This document shows, piece by piece, positions 5,661 to 18,044 of a DNA stretch of 29,334 nucleotides. The position numbers and the translations under genes were made by a program. Positions within the stretch are counted from its first letter, which is position 1, and each line of letters opens with the position of its first letter. A model generated the notes under the pieces. It did no database searches and was not told the origin of the DNA. It was given only the letters and a program-made list of their open reading frames with translations. This DNA is from Candidatus Altiarchaeota archaeon (lineage in GTDB: Archaea; SpSt-1190), in contig JAAOXV010000034.1 of assembly GCA_018220955.1 (NCBI GenBank), positions 1 through 29,334 on the forward strand. Reading direction: 5' to 3'.

Positions 5661-5699
5661 ATAAAAAAGGGAAGTCCTAGAAACCGTAGGTTTCTAGTG

Positions 5700-5774
5700 C
5701 GAGCCGAGGGGGATTTGAACCCCCGACCTGCGGGTCCGAAGCCCGCCGCACTATCCAAACTATGCTACCGGCCC
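5700..5774 (-). tRNA. tRNA-Arg (anticodon TCG), 75 nt, no encoded CCA
   Basis: Hand-folded cloverleaf. The acceptor GGGCCGG/UCGGCUC has two G.U pairs (2:71 and 7:66). The D stem is GCAU/GUGC. The anticodon stem GCGGG/CCCGC carries the loop CUUCGGA (UCG). The T arm is GGGGG-UUCAAAU-CCCCC and the discriminator is G. Confidence 0.8.
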
Positions 5775-5855: not shown

Positions 5856-6062
5856 CTATTTCTTGAACTGTTTTTTCCAAAACACGGTGTCTGGTAGCAA
5901 GAGTCCGATAAAGCCACCTATCTCTAGCACAACAGCCAGCGCCATTGTGCAGCTGTCACCATATGAGCTAAACCAGAGTCCGAGTCCGTTTGCTATCATG
6001 ATTGCTCCAAACACTCGCGACAAAAAGTCAGCTATCGGTTGTCTCCATTTTAACAGGGCCAC
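5856..6062 (-). CDS. Hypothetical small membrane protein (68 aa, 2 predicted TM helices)
   Basis: The ORF lies between the two tRNA genes and has hydrophobic segments (FGAIMIANGLGLWF, LAVVLEIGGFIGLLL). It has no recognisable family and could be spurious. Confidence 0.2.
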   Translation of the reverse strand: MALLKWRQPIADFLSRVFGAIMIANGLGLWFSSYGDSCTMALAVVLEIGGFIGLLLPDTVFWKKQFKK

Positions 6063-6226: not shown

Positions 6227-6311
6227 TGTCGGGAATGGGATTCGAACCCATGTACTCACTAGAGACAGGATCTTAAGTCCTGCGCGTTTGACCAGTCTCC
6301 GCCACCCCGAC
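6227..6311 (-). tRNA. tRNA-Leu (anticodon TAA), type II with long variable arm, 85 nt, no encoded CCA
   Basis: Acceptor GUCGGGG/UCCCGAC. Anticodon stem CAGGA/UCCUG with loop CUUAAGA (UAA). Variable arm CUC-UAGU-GAG. T arm AUGGG-UUCGAAU-CCCAU. Discriminator A. A TATA-like atatattaaaat lies about 25 nt upstream on the - strand (plus 6327-6340). Confidence 0.8.
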
Positions 6312-6345
6312 TTATGGCTCTGGCTCTATGGATTTTAATATATGA

Positions 6346-6867
6346 CTAAACAAGAAATTCTCTTAGCTTTGCTAATGGCGCTGACAAGTTTTCGTGTACT
6401 GAAAAATTGTATATTGGTTCAGAATGAGCTTGTATGTCAATTGCATAACCTCTACCAGTTGAAACCTGATAATGCATTGCATTGTCTTGGTTTTCATTAA
6501 TGGTTTCAAACAGTTCTTTTGCCCTATCAGATACTGTGTTATACCAATCCAGACAATGTTCGACATGTTCATGAGTTGTACCTATCAACACAATTGGGAT
6601 TTTGTTTGTTGTACTGATGATTTCCTGATAAAATTTTTCAGCTTCCTCAACAGTAGATGTGCTGGTACAGTCATAAAACAACAAAGCAGCCTGTAGGATT
6701 TTAGAAACATTTTTTGTGAAGTTTAGTTTCAAGTCTGTGTCGCCAAGACCATAAACAAAGCTTTCAGCTTCCCAACCAACTTGTTTTAGATATGACTTTG
6801 TCTCTGGATGTTTTGTATCCAATTTTGGATATTTGCTAAATAATCCGATTTCCAATTTCATATTCAA
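6346..6867 (-). CDS. Ras/Rab-like pseudo-GTPase: a paralog of the upstream GTPase with a degenerate P-loop
   Basis: 173 aa. The C-terminal two-thirds align with the adjacent 206-aa protein (LLFYDC..IPIVLIGTTHEH vs LVFYDL..PIMLVGIYDN; AMHYQVSTGRG vs AEHFQVSTNKD). The N-terminus (KLEIGLFSKYPK) lacks GxxxxGK[ST]. Its start overlaps the upstream stop by 4 nt. Confidence 0.5.
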   Translation of the reverse strand: MNMKLEIGLFSKYPKLDTKHPETKSYLKQVGWEAESFVYGLGDTDLKLNFTKNVSKILQAALLFYDCTSTSTVEEAEKFYQEIISTTNKIPIVLIGTTHEHVEHCLDWYNTVSDRAKELFETINENQDNAMHYQVSTGRGYAIDIQAHSEPIYNFSVHENLSAPLAKLREFLV

Positions 6868-7484
6868 ACCTCTGCAGAAATTTTGTCAAAATAAGCTGCT
6901 TCAGCACAAGCTCGGATTGGAGCATCATATGGTAAATCAGAATGAACTATCTCGCTCGGTCCGCTAAGATGTAATATTTTTTGTTGATCTTTGTTTGTTG
7001 AAACTTGGAAATGTTCTGCATATTCTCTATTTTCCTGGATTTGTTCAAACAGATTGTCGGCCAGTTCAATAACCTGTTCATTTTTCCCATTATCATAAAT
7101 ACCTACCAGCATAATCGGTTTGCGCGGGTCAATTCCGAGCTTTGTATCAATAAAATCAACATAGTCTTTAGCTATATCAATGCTTGTGACATCCATTAAA
7201 TCATAGAAAACCAAGTTAGTACTTGAACCCATGACAAATTTTGAAGATAAACACTGAAACCGTTTCTTTCCTGAAAAATCCCATATTTGAGCTAAAATTG
7301 TGGTTTTCTCTGGGTCTGGAGTTGCGATATCAAAATAATGAACATAATGTTCAACACCAATTGGTTTTTTCTCTTGGTCTATGCCAAGCGCAGTCTGAAG
7401 ATATTTGGATTTACCTATTTCAGATTTGCCTACTGAGAAAATTTTAAATAAATAATCATATCGCTTTTTCTCCGAAGAGTTCAT
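6864..7484 (-). CDS. Small Ras-superfamily (Rab/Rup-like) GTPase, divergent
   Basis: 206 aa. YDYLFKIFSVGKSEIGKS is a Rab-like N-terminus carrying a G1 P-loop (GxxxxGKS). IWDFSGKKRF corresponds to the Rab switch II motif WDTAGQERF (DxxG retained). The position of the guanine-specificity motif NKxD reads LVGIYDN, so G4 is degenerate. Confidence 0.6.
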   Translation of the reverse strand: MNSSEKKRYDYLFKIFSVGKSEIGKSKYLQTALGIDQEKKPIGVEHYVHYFDIATPDPEKTTILAQIWDFSGKKRFQCLSSKFVMGSSTNLVFYDLMDVTSIDIAKDYVDFIDTKLGIDPRKPIMLVGIYDNGKNEQVIELADNLFEQIQENREYAEHFQVSTNKDQQKILHLSGPSEIVHSDLPYDAPIRACAEAAYFDKISAEV

Positions 7485-7501
7485 ATAATACTATAAAGTA
7501 A

Positions 7502-7753
7502 CTACTTTTTAAGTTCTTGTTTTTCTTGTTCTTTGAGCAACATCTTACAAGCAATCATATGTGAGCACTCTTTACCTTTTAGAACATAGTATTCGCAATC
7601 GCAAATCCAGGTCTGGCCTGGCACACGGAAGATGACGTGCCGATCTTTGTTAGACTTGACTGTAAAATAGATAGAAGAACCAATAAGGCCTTTTGAAACA
7701 ACCTTTCCAGACTTCATGAGTTTTTGCGCTTTCCTAAACTTATCAGGCCTCAT
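7502..7753 (-). CDS. Small SWIM-type zinc-finger protein (CxC-x9-CxH)
   Basis: 83 aa, basic. WICDCEYYVLKGKECSHMIAC fits the SWIM CxCxnCxH pattern. Its start overlaps the tfb stop by 4 nt, and only 17 nt separate it from the GTPase gene. Confidence 0.4.
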   Translation of the reverse strand: MRPDKFRKAQKLMKSGKVVSKGLIGSSIYFTVKSNKDRHVIFRVPGQTWICDCEYYVLKGKECSHMIACKMLLKEQEKQELKK

Positions 7754-8703
7754 TTTATTGTAGCCTCGATAATGACTGGCTTTTCCTCAAGCTCCTTAAA
7801 TCTCATCTGTTTGGTCAGCTCCTTGTATCGGTTTCTGATTGTAACTTCTGTTACACCGGCTACATCCGCCACTTCTCTTTGAGTTTTCTTTTCTCCTGTT
7901 AGCTGAGCAGCTATGTATAGAACTGCTGCAGCCACGCCGGTCGGGCCCCTTCCAGATGAAAGTTCAAGCTCTTTTGCCTTTTTCAAAATTTCAAGTGATT
8001 TTGTTACTGTGATGCCTGATAGGTTTAGCTGGCTTGCGAATCTAGGGATATAGTCGGCTGGATCAGTCGGCAAAATCCTGATACCAAGCTGGCGAGCAAG
8101 GAATCGGAAGGTCCTACCAATTTCGCGCTTTGGTATATTAGCAACATCCGCTATCTCATCAAGCGTCCTGGGTGTTCCGTGTTCTCTGCAGGCAGTATAA
8201 AGTGAGGCTGCCACAACTGATTCCATGCTTCTTCCCCTGACTAGTTCTTTTGCAACCGCCCGCCTATAGACAAGCGCGGCTGCCTCTTCCACCCCTGGTG
8301 GCAGGTTGAGCTGACTGGTATAGCGTTTCAGCTCAGCTAGTGCATACTTCAGATTTCTCTCTGTTGCAGTACTGATTCTCTGTTGCCATTTTTTGAGTCT
8401 TAGGAATTTAGGCCTTAGTTTTGGCGGCAGCTTGAAAATATCACTGAATCCCATACCTATTTCGGTTGAGATTCCCTTGTCATGTCTGGCTAAACTAATC
8501 GGAGCTCCAGCTCGTCTTCGCTTATTGGCATCACCACTATCAAACTCTCGCCACTCTTGACTAAAATCTATCATGTTCTCTTCTAGTACTGCTCCGCATT
8601 TTTTGCAAACCAATTCGCCTCTAGTAAAATCTTTCATAAGACTTTCAGAATTACATTTAGGACATTTCTTTGTATCACCTGAAGAATGTACGACAAGTGC
8701 CAT
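7750..8703 (-). CDS. tfb: Transcription initiation factor IIB (TFB)
   Basis: N-terminal Zn ribbon CPKC...CKKCG and two cyclin-like repeats (ALVYRRAV..., AAAVLYIAAQL). 317 aa. TATA-like elements (tttataaatgg, ttaatataaaaaac) sit in the 117-nt upstream spacer. Confidence 0.9.
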   Translation of the reverse strand: MALVVHSSGDTKKCPKCNSESLMKDFTRGELVCKKCGAVLEENMIDFSQEWREFDSGDANKRRRAGAPISLARHDKGISTEIGMGFSDIFKLPPKLRPKFLRLKKWQQRISTATERNLKYALAELKRYTSQLNLPPGVEEAAALVYRRAVAKELVRGRSMESVVAASLYTACREHGTPRTLDEIADVANIPKREIGRTFRFLARQLGIRILPTDPADYIPRFASQLNLSGITVTKSLEILKKAKELELSSGRGPTGVAAAVLYIAAQLTGEKKTQREVADVAGVTEVTIRNRYKELTKQMRFKELEEKPVIIEATIK

Positions 8704-8820: not shown

Positions 8821-9837
8821 TTAAAAGACCGTGTCGAACATCCACCGAATTGCCTGTGGAAATACTTTTACCAAGAACCTGGATTGGAAATCCATATCAC
8901 CACGTGATTCAAGAACAGGCTTTGTTCTGTTTAGAAATCTGACCATCGCCTCTGGTTTGCGCTTTATTAGCTTGTATCCAAGTCCTTGCAAGAATAGTTC
9001 TTTTGACATCTTTTGTTTCCATAAACGTTCATAGTTTTTCTCGTTCTTGTTTAGAATTGCTTTGGCAGCTGCTTCTGCGGCCGTCATCGCCATTACTACG
9101 CCTCCGCCAGTGGTTGGCTTTACCTGCCCGGCAGAATCACCAACCAACAATATCTTTTTGTCAGCCAGCTCAAAATAGGTTTTCTTTACAGGTCCAGACA
9201 TAATCACAAGACCGGAATATTGTTTGGTTGGTCTGAATCTACCAAACCTCTTGAGTACAAAATCCTTGAGTGGTCTGCAGTCTCTGGCTGCCATCCCGAC
9301 TCTCACACCTTTGTCAATAGGAACTACCCAGCTAAAGAATTCAGAGGCCCAAGCTCCATACCAGAGCTCGACAAAGTTTTGATCAAGTCGCTCTTTTAGA
9401 TCAAATTGCAGAGCCGGCAAGAAACCCAGCTTCTGACCCATGTCAAATCTTGTTTTAGATGTTGACCCATCTGCTGCTATGATAGTCCCAGTCAAATCTC
9501 TCCAATTTGTTGAACAACCGACCTTAATATCTGCTCCAGCAGATGCTGCCATATCTGCGAGCTGCCTGTCAAAGCTCGGCCTATCAATAACTGTTGCAAT
9601 GCCTTTTTTTTCGAGCCGAACTTTTTCTTGTCCAGCTATAATTATAGCACCATCAATTTTGTTCAGGATTTTATCAGGCTTTACAAAGCTGTTGAGCCTG
9701 TTTGATATAAGTCCGGTACAATGATTTGGTTCGCCTATTTTTTTGGATTTTTCATATATCTGAACCTTTTCTCCAGCTTGTGCCAGCTTTAACCCAGCCC
9801 ATAATCCAGCTGGTCCAGCTCCAATAATGTTGGCCAC
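8821..9837 (-). CDS. Geranylgeranyl reductase-family FAD-dependent oxidoreductase
   Basis: N-terminal IIGAGPAGLWAG Rossmann FAD motif, CTGLIS, and the C-terminal GDSAGQVKPTTGGGV motif typical of GGR/DGGGP-lipid reductases. 338 aa. Confidence 0.75.
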   Translation of the reverse strand: MANIIGAGPAGLWAGLKLAQAGEKVQIYEKSKKIGEPNHCTGLISNRLNSFVKPDKILNKIDGAIIIAGQEKVRLEKKGIATVIDRPSFDRQLADMAASAGADIKVGCSTNWRDLTGTIIAADGSTSKTRFDMGQKLGFLPALQFDLKERLDQNFVELWYGAWASEFFSWVVPIDKGVRVGMAARDCRPLKDFVLKRFGRFRPTKQYSGLVIMSGPVKKTYFELADKKILLVGDSAGQVKPTTGGGVVMAMTAAEAAAKAILNKNEKNYERLWKQKMSKELFLQGLGYKLIKRKPEAMVRFLNRTKPVLESRGDMDFQSRFLVKVFPQAIRWMFDTVF

Positions 9838-9887: not shown

Positions 9888-10802
9888 TTGGAAGTGATGT
9901 TGATTATCATAGAAGGGCTTGGTTCACCGGCTGTGTTTGATTTAGCTCGGATGCCGGTTTTTGAAAGACTGGGTGAGCTTGGAGTGAGTGGTGTGATAAA
10001 AACAGGTTGGACTAAGCTCAATAATGGTGAGATGCTTTGGAGACTGCTTGGACTCGATGGTTTTCCAGGAATGGGTCCTGTTCTGGCATCCTCATATGGA
10101 GTCAGTCTTGGAAAGCGCTCTGCCGCACAGCTCAGATTTTGTGAAATAAAAAAAACAGATAAGGGTACAGAGTGTTTGTTCTTGACCGATAGAGAAGCTG
10201 AGGGTAAATATATTCTTGCTGGGAGAACACTCGAGATAATTGGTGAGCATGAGCCAATTCTAGTGTATGATGGTTCAACACGGATAAGTGAGAATTGGTG
10301 TGAACCAGGCGAGCTAATAAACAAGCCAGAGCCGCTTTCAAAGGATGCAAAGACCAGCACAAAATTACTCAGGACTTTCTCAAACAAGCTTTTTGAGCAA
10401 AAAGGACTTTGGCCGGTCTTTCGCGGATTCGGAAAGTTCTCAAAATTCCCGCGGCTTGATGGCACACTAGTGTCAAAATCAAGAACTGCTTTGGGAGTTG
10501 CAAAGCTGGTTAACCTTAAAACCACTAGCTCACTTGAATCAACCAGCGACGACAGTCTGCGAATAGTTTATTATTCAAAAAAATGGAAGAATCAAGCTGA
10601 GAAAAAGAAATTCTTGGAAAATCTTGACAAATCGCTTCTGCATCTTATTAGTCAGTCTGAAAAAGAAACCATAGCAATAACAGGAACTCAGGAAGAATCA
10701 GGTTTTCCAGTTCCATACGCAATTGCAGGACCGAACTCGTTTAAAGGAAAAATAAATCTTGAGCTCCACGAGTTCATGCAGGCATTAAACGAGCATAGAT
10801 AA
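9888..10802 (+). CDS. Metalloenzyme-superfamily protein related to archaeal cofactor-independent phosphoglycerate mutase (aPGM), short and with substituted metal ligands
   Basis: LIIIEGLGSPAV resembles the aPGM N-terminus LIIIDGLGDRP. The C-terminal ITGTQEESGFPVPYAIAGP resembles LTGDHSTP..DPIPIVIWG, but the DH/DHS metal-binding residues are replaced by TQ/EES. 304 aa versus about 410 for aPGM. The overlapping minus ORF (9869-10525) is low-complexity. Confidence 0.35.
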   Translation: MEVMLIIIEGLGSPAVFDLARMPVFERLGELGVSGVIKTGWTKLNNGEMLWRLLGLDGFPGMGPVLASSYGVSLGKRSAAQLRFCEIKKTDKGTECLFLTDREAEGKYILAGRTLEIIGEHEPILVYDGSTRISENWCEPGELINKPEPLSKDAKTSTKLLRTFSNKLFEQKGLWPVFRGFGKFSKFPRLDGTLVSKSRTALGVAKLVNLKTTSSLESTSDDSLRIVYYSKKWKNQAEKKKFLENLDKSLLHLISQSEKETIAITGTQEESGFPVPYAIAGPNSFKGKINLELHEFMQALNEHR

Positions 10803-11540
10803 GCAGGCCAAAAGGAACATGAACAAGACGGCCTTGAGTATTCTTTTTGCATACTTGAATCTATCGATTATAGAGAAGTAGAGTGAAAAACAAATCATTG
10901 CAAATGAGAACGAGAAATAAAATGCGTATGAAACATCACCATAGATAAGTGGCAGAAAACCCCAGATTGACATTAGAACCAGCATCAACTGTGCAACCAT
11001 TTTTGTTCGTTTCTCACCTATAATCTGTCTGAGCGTGTTTTGCTCAACTGAATATGGATGCGCTAGCTCGCTAAGTAAGAAGTATGATAAAATCAAGAGT
11101 AGCACAAACCAGAAAATTGCAAAGCTGATTGAATGGGTTGAGACGACCAATACAAAGGATGCAATAGCTATGGCTGAGATAAACTGACCGAGAAACTTCC
11201 AGCTCCATCTGATATGAGTGGCATACAGCACAAGTACAGCCTCTATCAAAAAGATTGGATACAGTATGTCATAGTTAATTGATAGTGCAAGCGAGACCAA
11301 TAGCAATCCAAAGCTAAGCTTGATTGTTGTGTTTTTGTCAAGCTTGCCAGCAGGGATGGATTTGTCCTGTCTGTATAGCTTGTCAGACTCAGCTCCAAAA
11401 TACTCGTTTAATCCACTTGCCCCCATTAGTCCAAAAAAGAACGGCAAAAATACTAGCGGTTCGCCAGCTGACAAGATGGCAGGAACAACTGATAAAAGAG
11501 AAATCATCAATGATTCCAAAACTCTGAATGTCTTGATCAT
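10785..11540 (-). CDS. UbiA-superfamily prenyltransferase-like polytopic membrane protein (divergent)
   Basis: 251 aa with 7-8 TM helices. LNEYFGAESDKLYRQDKSIPAGKL resembles the DGGGP-synthase/UbiA motif NDYFDxxxDxxxRxxRPxPxG, but its acidic residues are partly replaced. Confidence 0.4.
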   Translation of the reverse strand: MIKTFRVLESLMISLLSVVPAILSAGEPLVFLPFFFGLMGASGLNEYFGAESDKLYRQDKSIPAGKLDKNTTIKLSFGLLLVSLALSINYDILYPIFLIEAVLVLYATHIRWSWKFLGQFISAIAIASFVLVVSTHSISFAIFWFVLLLILSYFLLSELAHPYSVEQNTLRQIIGEKRTKMVAQLMLVLMSIWGFLPLIYGDVSYAFYFSFSFAMICFSLYFSIIDRFKYAKRILKAVLFMFLLACLSMLV

Positions 11541-14275: not shown

Positions 14276-16114
14276 TCACCCTTGTCGTTTTGATGAATAT
14301 AGAGTTGGTTGGCTTGATGCCCAAATGAGCGGAGTTCTGTCTGGTCCGATTGTATGTCCACCGCCGTGTAGGGCCGGAGCAAGATAACCGCCAAATGCTG
14401 CGCGCATAGGTGCACCAAGAGTTTCATACTGAAACGAATACATTCCTCTACTAAAAAAGCCCTGTGAATATCCCCGAGCCACGCCTTCCCAATAGCTGGG
14501 GGCATGACTATAACCCGCCTTTTCTACCATGCTAGGCATAACCTGACCTGGTGCAGTTGACATAGCCATCAGTGCTTCGAGTGGCACGCCATCATTCCAC
14601 ATATTATTTACAGTTATTTCGATATCTTCGATATCTGCTCCTTCGATATTCACCACACCCATGTCCATCAAGTTCTTGAATAACCCCGGGTCCATTCTTG
14701 ATACTTCATCCATCCAGTCTCCCCAGGCTTCGTGTTGGTGGCCGAATCCAGGTCCGCCGACCAAATGAACATGACCTGGCTTGACTCCGTGCTTTTTGAG
14801 CTCTTTCAAAAACTCGCTTGGTTTGATATTGCTTGATGCAGAGTGACCAACATCAAAGGTCATGGTAATCAGGTCTGGCGATACTCCATTAGCCTTTGCG
14901 ATTGACCTAATTTTCTTGACCAACTTTGCCATCTCAGCTGGTTTGTAGAACATCGGATAGCCTTGCATATACCCTTTTTCTGGTGCGGCTGGAAATAGGT
15001 TTTCGAGCGCAATCTTGACTTTTCCTTGCTTGAGCATTTTTTGGGTTTCCTTGTCTTTAAGCAGCTTGCTGAATGTGTCTTCAACATTCTTCATTATCAT
15101 AGATTTCGAATCACTAAACGGTCCGAATCGCATTCCTTCTCGGGTCATTATTTTTTCCCATGCCTTTTCTCTGAGCTCCAGCTCTTGTCTTTGATTTTTT
15201 GCCACCTCGCCGTGCCGCCCAATCGGGCTTAGTGATGCAAGATTGACTTTTGACCATTGGCCTTCAATAAAATTCTGGACTTCTGGATTAGCAAAATGTT
15301 TTTTGAACTCATTTAGCATTTTATTGTCTAGCTTTCCCTCGGGTGCAAGTCTCATAAACTGCGTCATCATCCGGCTTCGGATTTCCTCATCAATATTATT
15401 GACTTTTTTGATATCTGATAAGACCTTTCCAAGGTCGTTGCTATGTTGTTTGAAAAGATCAACCACCCGTTCCTGTGCTACATTGGTCTTGAAATTATCA
15501 TGAATCGGTGCAGCCGCAGCAGCAAACTTTTCTGCAAATGTCAGCGGAAGCGTTTGAATAAAATTACCCCACTCGCGTTTTATCTGTTCTTTCATTAATT
15601 CATCCTTTACATTATATTCCTGAAACAACTTATTCAGCTCTTGTTTGTTTGCAGCCAGCATGAATGGACTTTGAACCGGCAGCTTTGTGCCGACAAATGG
15701 CTCAATAAAGTAGTAACCCATTGAACCAATTGGATGGACTGTAAGTGTCTTTGCACCAACTCGCTTGGAATACTCTATACTTTGCTTTAGTATCTCTGCT
15801 GCCTTGGCTCGCTCAATTCCAGTTAAACCAGCCGGGTCTGCCTTCATTGGAGCATGAACAGTAATGTCGCCTGCAAATGTGTTTACAATATCTTTTACTT
15901 TTGCGACCTGCCTGTCTGTAACAGACCTGGGCCCGGTCTCAGCTCGAATAGCTAATCCGCCTCCGGCTCCCTCTTTTGCAAACGTGCCACCTAAGTCAAT
16001 CTCTGCGCTCACAACCCCGCGCTCAAACGTGTTCATGAGTTGTGCAAAGAAATCGGCTTTTTCGTTGGGACCAGGCACACTTGCACCGATTGCTGGCTTT
16101 TTTTTGTCTGCCAC
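14276..16114 (-). CDS. Xylose-isomerase-like / endonuclease-IV-superfamily TIM-barrel protein with a large internal insertion
   Basis: 612 aa. N-terminal AIGASVPGP...LGGTFAK...ITVHAP and TLTVHP, later FDVGHS, and C-terminal GHVHLVGGPGFGHQHE resemble the metal-binding strands of the Endo IV / sugar-phosphate isomerase TIM barrel. About 280 residues of helical sequence are inserted between them. Confidence 0.35.
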   Translation of the reverse strand: MADKKKPAIGASVPGPNEKADFFAQLMNTFERGVVSAEIDLGGTFAKEGAGGGLAIRAETGPRSVTDRQVAKVKDIVNTFAGDITVHAPMKADPAGLTGIERAKAAEILKQSIEYSKRVGAKTLTVHPIGSMGYYFIEPFVGTKLPVQSPFMLAANKQELNKLFQEYNVKDELMKEQIKREWGNFIQTLPLTFAEKFAAAAAPIHDNFKTNVAQERVVDLFKQHSNDLGKVLSDIKKVNNIDEEIRSRMMTQFMRLAPEGKLDNKMLNEFKKHFANPEVQNFIEGQWSKVNLASLSPIGRHGEVAKNQRQELELREKAWEKIMTREGMRFGPFSDSKSMIMKNVEDTFSKLLKDKETQKMLKQGKVKIALENLFPAAPEKGYMQGYPMFYKPAEMAKLVKKIRSIAKANGVSPDLITMTFDVGHSASSNIKPSEFLKELKKHGVKPGHVHLVGGPGFGHQHEAWGDWMDEVSRMDPGLFKNLMDMGVVNIEGADIEDIEITVNNMWNDGVPLEALMAMSTAPGQVMPSMVEKAGYSHAPSYWEGVARGYSQGFFSRGMYSFQYETLGAPMRAAFGGYLAPALHGGGHTIGPDRTPLIWASSQPTLYSSKRQG

Positions 16115-16162
16115 AATAGTATCTGTTCGCCATACTTATAAATCTCATAGATTAGACCTGGC

Positions 16163-17525: not shown

Positions 17526-18044
17526 TCATAAAGGCCCTAAATTGAAGATTCGATAAAAAATCTCTTTTGGTAGCACACTTATCCAACCTATCATTGGTGC
17601 CATCACTGCTGCTTTGCCCTGTATCCAGCTGTTTTGAATCACCCAAGGGTCTGCTACAGGATTATGATCGCCTTTAGTAGTATAACCATTATCCGTGATA
17701 TTTACGACCCGATGAATAATCGGGTAACCAAGCTCGGGATTTACATATACCACAACATCCCCGACGCTTATGTTGTTAGCTTCCACAATTACCAATGCAT
17801 CTCCTTTGTTAAACCCAGTTGGAAACGGAAAGTTATCCAGCTGTTCGGTATTATACCCTTTGGACAACATCCAAGAATAGTAATTGTATTGCGTGATTGA
17901 ATCATGTTCCATGCTGCCGCTCATAACAGCTACAAACGGAAGAGATGTTCCGAAAAAATAGCCAAATGTCGCTCTGAGTAGCATTGCTACCACGAATGCC
18001 CAGACAAGATCTTTACCAAACTTTTTGATTATTTGATTGTCCAT
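17526..18044 (-). CDS. Signal peptidase I (archaeal Sec11 / S26B type)
   Basis: N-terminal TM helix followed by AVMSGSMEH (catalytic Ser box) and GDHN. 172 aa. Confidence 0.75.
   Translation of the reverse strand: MDNQIIKKFGKDLVWAFVVAMLLRATFGYFFGTSLPFVAVMSGSMEHDSITQYNYYSWMLSKGYNTEQLDNFPFPTGFNKGDALVIVEANNISVGDVVVYVNPELGYPIIHRVVNITDNGYTTKGDHNPVADPWVIQNSWIQGKAAVMAPMIGWISVLPKEIFYRIFNLGPL

Follow-up and report, generated by a model that had tools for sequence, protein, structure and literature searches.

Genes at the tfb locus

The window analysed here is the whole of a 29,334-nucleotide stretch (positions 1 to 29,334 of contig JAAOXV010000034.1, GenBank assembly GCA_018220955.1) from a metagenome-assembled genome (MAG) labelled Candidatus Altiarchaeota by NCBI, a lineage placed in the DPANN kingdom Nanobdellati. 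It contains tfb, the gene of the archaeal transcription initiation factor B, followed by a gene for a small SWIM zinc-finger protein and by two genes for Rab-like proteins of the Ras superfamily, one with the phosphate-binding loop (P-loop) and one without (locus tags GOU99_02285-02295 at the feature). An initial annotation, made from the sequence alone, took these four genes for a likely single transcription unit and suggested a possible small-GTPase switch that regulates transcription or is regulated with it. The genes, a candidate promoter element and the tRNA gene that follows them are located as follows.

7750-8703, minus strand: tfb, transcription initiation factor B (NF001658, Pfam and the TFBs of relatives)
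7502-7753, minus strand: stand-alone SWIM zinc-finger protein, 83 aa (open reading frame and five homologues)
7506-7512, minus strand: candidate TATA box TTAAAAA, within the last codons of the SWIM gene (sequence prediction)
6864-7484, minus strand: Rab-like Ras-superfamily P-loop protein, 206 aa (Pfam Ras/Roc and PDB matches)
6346-6861, minus strand: P-loop-less paralog (predicted pseudo-GTPase), 171 aa from ATG 6861; 173 aa from the alternative start TTG 6867
6227-6311, minus strand: tRNA-Leu(UAA), 34 nt downstream of the paralog (ARAGORN and Rfam)

The four open reading frames (ORFs), their identities and their tight spacing were confirmed, with one refinement. The tfb and SWIM genes overlap by 4 nt (ATGA), and a gap of 17 nt (7485-7501) separates the SWIM gene from the 206-aa gene. 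The 4-nt overlap announced between the 206-aa gene and its paralog holds only with the TTG 6867 start. Since an AGAGGT Shine-Dalgarno (SD)-like motif lies 7 nt upstream of ATG 6861 and NCBI calls a protein of 171 aa, the paralog more probably starts at this ATG, 2 nt past the stop of the 206-aa gene. The tRNA-Leu(UAA) gene bounds the unit downstream and is itself preceded, at about 26 nt, by a separate ATATTAAAA element.

The identity of TFB is unambiguous. The protein scored 412 bits with NCBIfam NF001658 (cut-off 384) and matched Pfam TFIIB (PF00382, E=9e-48) over two cyclin-like repeats, as well as Zn_Ribbon_TF (PF08271, E=4e-16) over a zinc ribbon (CxxC...CxxC) at the N-terminus. Four Altarchaeota/Nanobdellati MAGs (L002-L005) encode TFBs with 77-82% identity to this one, and an AGGTGA SD lies 4 nt ahead of the ATG of the window's tfb.

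The 83-aa protein carries the SWIM signature W49-x-C51-x-C53-x9-C63-S-H65-x2-A68-C69, and W49, C51, D52, C53, C63, S64, H65, A68 and C69 are invariant in all five homologues. As in Pfam SWIM (PF04434), the CxCxnCxH motif is followed by a hydrophobic-Ala pattern and has a beta-rich segment ahead of it. PF04434 itself matched four of the five family members (E<=10; best 5e-4), the window's own copy giving no reported match, and a profile of the family matched none of the solved structures. Small stand-alone SWIM proteins occur in prokaryotes. Unlike known SWIM proteins, the one described here belongs to a very small subfamily (81-92 aa, found in five contigs) that always lies immediately after tfb; scans of genomes and metagenomes with its alignment gave no match. 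The ATGA overlap suggests that tfb and the SWIM gene are translationally coupled, which is why TFB and the SWIM protein are probably synthesised together. Our literature search turned up no account of an association between tfb and a SWIM gene.

Distribution and predicted promoters of the two gene pairs

Scanning genomes with TFB gave 60 loci, of which four are close (L002-L005); the TFBs of the remaining 56, from Woesearchaeota and others, are at most 65% identical. All ORFs of all loci were searched by phmmer and hmmsearch for SWIM and GTPase-like proteins. A related sequence, L001, is a 1.1-kb Logan contig that encodes the one known orthologue of the P-loop-less protein (169 aa, 39% identical, E=5e-23). 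The SWIM gene directly follows tfb in the window and in L001-L004, with an overlap of 4 nt or 1 nt or a gap of 10 nt, and is absent after tfb in L005 and in the 56 more distant loci. Among the loci searched, GTPase-like ORFs are limited to the window (two genes) and L001 (one, P-loop-less). The SWIM gene being present in five contigs and GTPase-like ORFs in two, the conserved module is tfb-SWIM, to which the Rab-like genes have been added more narrowly, in a lineage-specific way. The four-gene neighbourhood as a whole is thus not borne out as conserved, since only tfb-SWIM recurs (window and L001-L004). The tfb-SWIM pairing is confined to a single clade of DPANN archaea labelled Altarchaeota, where it offers a testable lead towards a lineage-specific transcription accessory factor.

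L001 carries, in order, the 3' end of tfb, the SWIM gene (its protein 84% identical to that of the window), the P-loop-less gene, tRNA-Leu(UAA) and the start of a small membrane protein. It is syntenic with the window on both sides of the P-loop-less gene and has no P-loop copy at the locus. A small hydrophobic protein follows tRNA-Leu in both sequences (window 5856-6062, minus strand, MALLKWRQPIADFLSRVFG...; L001 1051-1107, VIVVVLLRWRKPIADFLSR). L001 is therefore the orthologous locus, differing by the absence of the 206-aa gene, and the P-loop-less protein needs no neighbouring P-loop copy. The gene after SWIM in L004 is tRNA-Ser(GCU) (6246-6331); in the window and L001, the Rab-like genes and then tRNA-Leu(UAA) come after SWIM. 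The region downstream of tfb-SWIM seems to be a variable slot, often ending at a tRNA gene.

Promoter positions were assessed from TATA-like hexamers upstream of 73 genes of the window and L002-L005. Hits peaked between -30 and -26 from the gene starts (28 of 64, each of the other 5-nt bins holding 2 to 8). Among 28 window genes, 9 have a TATA-like box at that position, versus a background of 0.6% in coding DNA, and eight of the nine have no SD; the exception, at 17526-18044, has AGGTGG. This pattern indicates that the predicted mRNAs of the boxed genes are mostly leaderless. Gene starts split into two classes, leaderless starts with a box and usually no SD, and internal cistrons bearing an SD, a distinction that helps operon calling in this lineage.

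The first T of TTAAAAA (7512-7506) lies 28 nt upstream of the 206-aa ATG at 7484, and no SD was found in the 17-nt gap before this gene. It was therefore assigned to the leaderless class. The box is missing before the SWIM gene and the paralog, which instead have SD-like motifs and so behave as second cistrons. In L001 the same TTAAAAA is found at the same 28-nt spacing from the ATG of the P-loop-less gene (335 to 363), and the CTTAAAAAGT.GTTA block that contains it is conserved as well. Owing to an indel of 4 nt immediately before it, the box stands in another reading frame in L001, where it overlaps the stop codon. Box and spacing have thus been kept though synonymous sites between the two sequences are saturated. 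Two control loci agree with this interpretation: in L002, where the next gene is convergent, there is no such box at the 3' end of the SWIM gene, and in L004 an ATTAAAA lies about 30 nt ahead of the same-strand tRNA-Ser. A scan for sigma-70 promoters and intrinsic terminators is uninformative for archaea and was discarded, its sites being no more numerous than in shuffled sequence.

In the most likely layout predicted from these sequence patterns, tfb-SWIM is transcribed from the tfb promoter, the 206-aa and 171-aa genes from an internal promoter, and tRNA-Leu from one of its own. We consider it reasonably probable that the locus consists of two adjacent bicistrons, tfb-SWIM and Rab-like/pseudo-GTPase, and not of one TFB-GTPase operon. 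Tight spacing does not imply an operon in leaderless-dominated genomes, since promoters can sit in the last codons of the preceding gene.

The single transcription unit of the initial annotation now looks decidedly unlikely. A separate promoter signal, which that annotation had named as evidence against its proposal, is present as a sequence prediction. In the single-unit model, the Rab-like protein and its P-loop-less partner would form a nucleotide switch that controls TFB, or is regulated jointly with it, in concert with or by way of the SWIM protein. The same-strand genes are indeed tightly packed and no terminator-like signal separates them, L001 keeps a G-domain gene after the SWIM gene, and there is a precedent for a small zinc-binding protein beside a small GTPase in ArvA/ArvC (PMC10927574). 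However, a conserved promoter-like box occupies the typical leaderless position before the 206-aa gene, and three close relatives have tfb-SWIM without a GTPase-like gene, so that SWIM tracks TFB and not G proteins. Moreover, L001 carries only the P-loop-less copy at the locus, and in the P-loop copy of the window the switch-I Thr, the catalytic Gln and NKxD are gone, which makes classic switching doubtful.

The Rab-like protein and its P-loop-less paralog

The 206-aa protein matched Pfam Ras (PF00071) with 40.4 bits (cut-off 21.6) and Roc (PF08477) with 41 bits (cut-off 27). Against the PDB, it retrieved 211 small GTPases at E<=0.01; the best 60 were all Rab/Ypt proteins, with Rab1A at the top (E=6.6e-12). 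The likeness to Rabs is concentrated in the N-terminal two-thirds, which include YDYLFK, the P-loop, the switch-I IGV and QIWD..G..RF. All motifs quoted in the initial annotation (YDYLFK, GKSEIGKS, WDFSGKKRF and LVGIYDN) are present, and the profile searches confirmed G-domain homology. The G motifs, judged against 53 Rab-like sequences, are in the following state.

G1 P-loop: G19-KSEI-GKS26; intact
Switch-I Thr (G2): Pro (KKPIGVEHY versus sTIGVDF); lost, the Thr being present in at least 90% of aligned Rab-like sequences
G3 DxxG: D69FSG; intact
Catalytic Gln: Lys (WDFSGKKRF); lost
G4 [NT]KxD: LVG-IYDN aligned to LVG-NKxD; absent, with none anywhere in the protein
G5: S162-T-N; reduced
C-terminal Cys: none, the protein ending in ...YFDKISAEV

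The initial annotation had singled out NKxD as the degraded motif and had set WDFSGKKRF beside WDTAGQERF without remarking on the difference. Its absence stands, and the switch-I Thr and the catalytic Gln are to be added to the list. Because these three elements are gone, the 206-aa protein is, as read from its sequence, not a canonical GTPase and is itself degenerate: phosphate binding is plausible, while guanine specificity and intrinsic hydrolysis are doubtful. Some families supply catalysis in trans (PMC4316618). An active GTPase with a dead partner, as first proposed, is hence hard to reconcile with a P-loop copy lacking three of five catalytic or specificity elements, and with the lack of a P-loop copy at the L001 locus. 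Judged by eye from the alignments, RabF1 is kept at 3 of 5 positions (IGVEH) and RabF2 at 5 of 11, and RabF3-5 are mostly divergent. An insertion of 15-20 residues lies between G5 and alpha5.

The relatives of the 206-aa protein are distant. Run exhaustively against 1.84 billion representative proteins, phmmer found no orthologue, only the protein itself exceeding 80 bits; the best non-self match had E=4e-17 and about 30% identity. The non-self matches comprise Rabs of eukaryotes, gene models with tandem Rabs, and Rab-like proteins of prokaryote type, among them a Hodarchaeota "Rab family GTPase". Word-indexed homologue searches with the 206-aa and 171-aa proteins returned the queries only, and a single-sequence AlphaFold2 model of the 206-aa protein (pLDDT 34) gave no usable structure. 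The protein is 21-30% identical to any relative, with a mean full-length identity of 25% to eukaryote-type sequences and 24% to sequences without a Cys tail. As identity to the two types is equally low, no donor lineage can be named.

The 171-aa protein aligned with the 206-aa protein by BLASTP with 30% identity over 134 aa (E=4e-8). When a profile of the 171-aa protein and its orthologue was compared by hhalign with the Rab-like alignment, residues 55-142 (beta4 to G5) matched with 96.6% probability (E=5e-10). Sequence comparison thus identifies it as a true paralog, in which the G-domain core is kept from beta4 to beta6 and alpha5. Its lack of a P-loop was also confirmed: neither the 171-aa protein nor the L001 orthologue contains GxxxxGK[ST], GK[ST], DxxG or [NT]KxD anywhere. 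With G-domain homology and loss of G1, G3 and G4, it fits, by its sequence, the concept of a pseudo-GTPase. The G5-alpha5 insertion is common to all three members of this Rab-like family, as are the blocks LFExI..A.H[YF]QVS and [SD]AP[LI]. A scan of JGI metagenomes with the P-loop-less alignment found no further relatives. A structure model of the paralog was built without the L001-derived sequence. The idea that the paralog keeps a decayed beta1/P-loop/alpha1 was dropped, as it relied on a low-confidence part of this model alone and BLASTP found no similarity there.

Comparison of the window with L001 gave nonsynonymous divergences (dN) of 0.06 for the 3' end of tfb, 0.10 for the SWIM gene and 0.73 for the P-loop-less gene. 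Since synonymous sites are saturated (proportion of synonymous differences, pS, about 0.8), constraint on the P-loop-less gene is expressed as the proportion of nonsynonymous differences (pN, 0.47) against pS (0.80), and not as dN/dS. The P-loop-less gene is fast-evolving, at about 7 times the rate of the SWIM gene, yet still constrained. Both Rab-like genes of the window have 35.1% GC (27-28% at third codon positions, GC3), versus 42.3% for the window and 45% for tfb; the L001 orthologue has an ordinary GC content of 45.7%. The low GC of the window genes could reflect relaxed selection, AT drift or foreign origin.

The Rab-like genes might be decaying remnants, now functionless and on their way to loss, of a GTPase duplication that was once functional and possibly acquired horizontally, as suggested by the progressive loss of G motifs, the dN of the P-loop-less gene relative to those of SWIM and TFB, the anomalously low GC of both genes in the window (35.1%, with GC3 27-28%, versus 42.3% overall), the loss of one copy from the locus in L001 and the lack of other relatives in very large databases. 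However, both ORFs are intact and full length, and the P-loop-less gene has stayed open in two lineages despite synonymous saturation, with pN well below pS. The P-loop-less proteins of the window and L001 also share the strongly conserved blocks AALLFYDC, IPIVLxGT, LFExI, HYQVS and LSAPLA, and the promoter-like box and SD are retained. We thus regard functionless decay as unlikely.

Another explanation is that the pair is a transferred cassette, of Asgard, eukaryotic or mobile-element origin, inserted beside tRNA-Leu and having a role unrelated to transcription, for example in membranes or defence. Its atypical composition in the window, the adjoining tRNA gene, best matches among eukaryotic Rabs and Asgard "Rab family GTPase" proteins, and the patchy distribution of Rab-like proteins in non-Asgard archaea (PMC4915359) are consistent with this. 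Nevertheless, neither an integrase gene nor a repeat or other mobile-element gene lies nearby, and there is no phage match; the genes lie 5' of the tRNA and not at its 3' end; the GC content of the L001 orthologue is normal; and identity to either Rab-like type is too low for a donor to be named. In addition, inspection of the translation by eye revealed no membrane anchor (no C-terminal Cys, and no obvious Arf-like amphipathic N-terminus or polybasic tail). A transferred cassette therefore appears very improbable.

The proposed two bicistrons and known small G protein systems

Under the favoured organisation in two bicistrons, the first unit would be tfb with the translationally coupled, clade-specific SWIM gene, the two proteins being made together. 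The SWIM protein would assist the basal transcription machinery as an accessory that binds DNA or protein in a zinc-dependent manner. The second unit would be expressed from its own leaderless promoter (TTAAAAA at -28) and encode a tandem-duplicated, highly divergent Rab-like pair. Its 206-aa member probably binds nucleotide with relaxed base specificity and little intrinsic hydrolysis, working as a slow or constitutively nucleotide-bound adaptor and not as a fast on/off switch. The 171-aa protein, without the phosphate-binding motif, would have no canonical nucleotide binding. It is presumably coupled translationally to the 206-aa protein and might pair with it through the retained G-domain core. 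Such heterodimerisation is plausible from the sequences; it would not be required, as the L001 locus lacks the P-loop copy. The location of the pair beside tfb would be a lineage-specific placement between tfb-SWIM and tRNA-Leu and not a conserved functional link.

Several points weigh against this organisation or against parts of it. No oligo-T tract or terminator-like site lies between the SWIM and 206-aa genes; the terminator that would separate tfb-SWIM from the downstream genes was looked for and not found, and read-through from the tfb promoter is consequently possible or even likely, so that some co-transcription may occur. The internal promoter is predicted from a sequence pattern and one related contig. 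As L001 is only 1.1 kb long, a 206-aa copy could lie elsewhere in that genome. As for the paralog, its structure model used a multiple sequence alignment of Rabs, which biases it toward the G fold, and its first ~50 residues were of low confidence; BLASTP between the N-terminal segments (about 48 residues) of the 171-aa and 206-aa proteins found no similarity.

Any link of the Rab-like pair to transcription is one of adjacency only. The proposed coupling of a small-GTPase switch to transcription fares poorly, the Rab-like proteins occurring in two known contigs and probably having their own promoter. A more elaborate scheme, in which a 206/171 heterodimer would sense nucleotides and, together with the TFB-coupled SWIM protein, modulate the activity of TFB or of the pre-initiation complex in this DPANN lineage, seems highly improbable. 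If the pair did act on TFB, it would be the first link of a small G protein to archaeal basal transcription; the evidence points away from this. The arrangement itself is undescribed in the literature searched, as the initial annotation had maintained, and nothing specific was found there on a SWIM-TFB link or on small GTPases of Altiarchaeota.

Outside Asgard, archaeal Rab-like proteins are sporadic (Surkont & Pereira-Leal 2016, PMC4915359). Those described conserve the RabF1/RabF2 positions of eukaryotic Rabs and have no C-terminal Cys (PMC4915359). The 206-aa protein resembles them as a single-domain Ras-superfamily protein with best matches to Rab1, Rab11 and Ypt1, a Rab-type N-terminus (YDYLFK), partial RabF1 (IGVEH for IGVDF) and RabF2 (QIWD..G), and no prenylation Cys. 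It differs in its poor RabF3-5, its G5-alpha5 insertion and its source, a DPANN (Altarchaeota) MAG, and, unlike nearly all aligned Rab-like sequences, which keep their G motifs, it is without the switch-I Thr, the catalytic Gln and NKxD. A Rab in the eukaryotic sense was rejected because RabF3-5 are divergent and the prenylation Cys is missing, although the best similarity is to Rabs. The 206-aa protein is best filed with the prokaryotic Rab-like/Ras-superfamily proteins. An orphan Rab-like protein with a pseudo-GTPase paralog in a DPANN lineage adds to the patchy non-Asgard record, and the pair illustrates in nature how G motifs decay step by step once a gene has been duplicated in tandem.

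Rup proteins are functionally uncharacterised GTPases of the Ras superfamily in prokaryotes (Wuichet & Sogaard-Andersen 2015, PMC4316618); Group 1 also lacks the catalytic Gln, and Group 2, from Crenarchaeota, is highly duplicated (PMC4316618). Like them, the 206-aa protein is a small prokaryotic member of the superfamily that is not coupled to MglB and keeps the G3 Asp. Unlike Rup Group 1, it also lacks NKxD and has no neighbour genes encoding coiled-coil, OmpA-domain or signalling-output proteins. In MglA, G3 has no conserved Asp, and its partner MglB is a Roadblock/LC7 protein (PMC4316618). An MglA/MglB module was rejected, as no Roadblock domain was found in the four genes or in 10 neighbours and the G3 Asp is kept. 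A Rag/Gtr heterodimer was rejected in turn: there was no Gtr1_RagA match at E<=1, proteins of 206 and 171 aa leave no extra domain, and one subunit has no P-loop. The analogy first drawn with Rag or MglA/MglB modules is therefore not supported, no Roadblock or longin domain having been found in the four genes or the 10 neighbours scanned.

Pseudo-GTPases, or pairings of a GTPase with one, are exemplified by CENP-M and the Rag heterodimers. Like pseudo-GTPases, the 171-aa protein keeps the G-domain fold, is without nucleotide-binding motifs and adjoins a P-loop paralog. This analogy suggests that it may have a structural or adaptor role, via G-domain contacts. Degenerate septins are a further example of pseudo-GTPases (PMC10731463). 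Unlike in Rag/Gtr, the pair has no Roadblock/longin dimerisation domains, pairing is not obligatory at the locus (L001) and the P-loop partner is itself degenerate.

In the archaeal vesiculating GTPase operon ArvA-ArvB-ArvC, found in DPANN and Euryarchaeota including Altiarchaeota, a small GTPase gene lies beside the gene of a small zinc-binding protein (PMC10927574). A small Ras-type gene likewise stands beside a small zinc-finger gene in the window. Membership of the ArvA family was nonetheless rejected, the four proteins giving no Arf, MMR_HSR1, DUF2073 (ArvB) or DUF2072 (ArvC) match at E<=1. Unlike ArvA, which is Arf/MMR_HSR1-like, the 206-aa protein matches Ras and Roc only, and unlike ArvC, the zinc protein of the window is of SWIM type, is encoded upstream and goes with TFB, not with the GTPase.

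A Pfam scan of 10 neighbours identified exosome subunits, uS2, Memo, a geranylgeranyl-reductase-like FAD protein, Tsr3 and nucleotidyltransferases, which are housekeeping genes; 2 of the 10 had no Pfam match. No Roadblock, longin, GAP, GEF, integrase, DUF2072 or DUF2073 domain was detected among them. A tRNA-Arg gene (ARAGORN and Rfam) lies at 5699-5774. The geranylgeranyl-reductase-like gene (8821-9837, minus strand) is directly upstream of tfb on the same strand. Surkont and Pereira-Leal proposed that archaeal isoprenoid-metabolism proteins resemble Rab REP/GDI; the nearness of this gene to the Rab-like genes is probably a coincidence. A 251-aa multi-pass membrane protein without a Pfam match (10785-11540, minus strand) is conserved upstream of tfb in close relatives (L002 1757-2506, L003 3159-3917, L004 4042-4788). 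Between it and tfb, the window has the geranylgeranyl-reductase-like gene and a 304-aa gene without a Pfam match (9888-10802).

Finally, the window contains three divergent gene pairs 47-48 nt apart, each with a central palindromic TATA-like element about 27 nt from both starts: 14276-16114 (minus)/16163-17143 (plus), with TTATAA at 16136-16141; 24355-26061/26109-27077; and 27671-28261/28310-29203. From their sequence, they look like compact bidirectional leaderless promoters.

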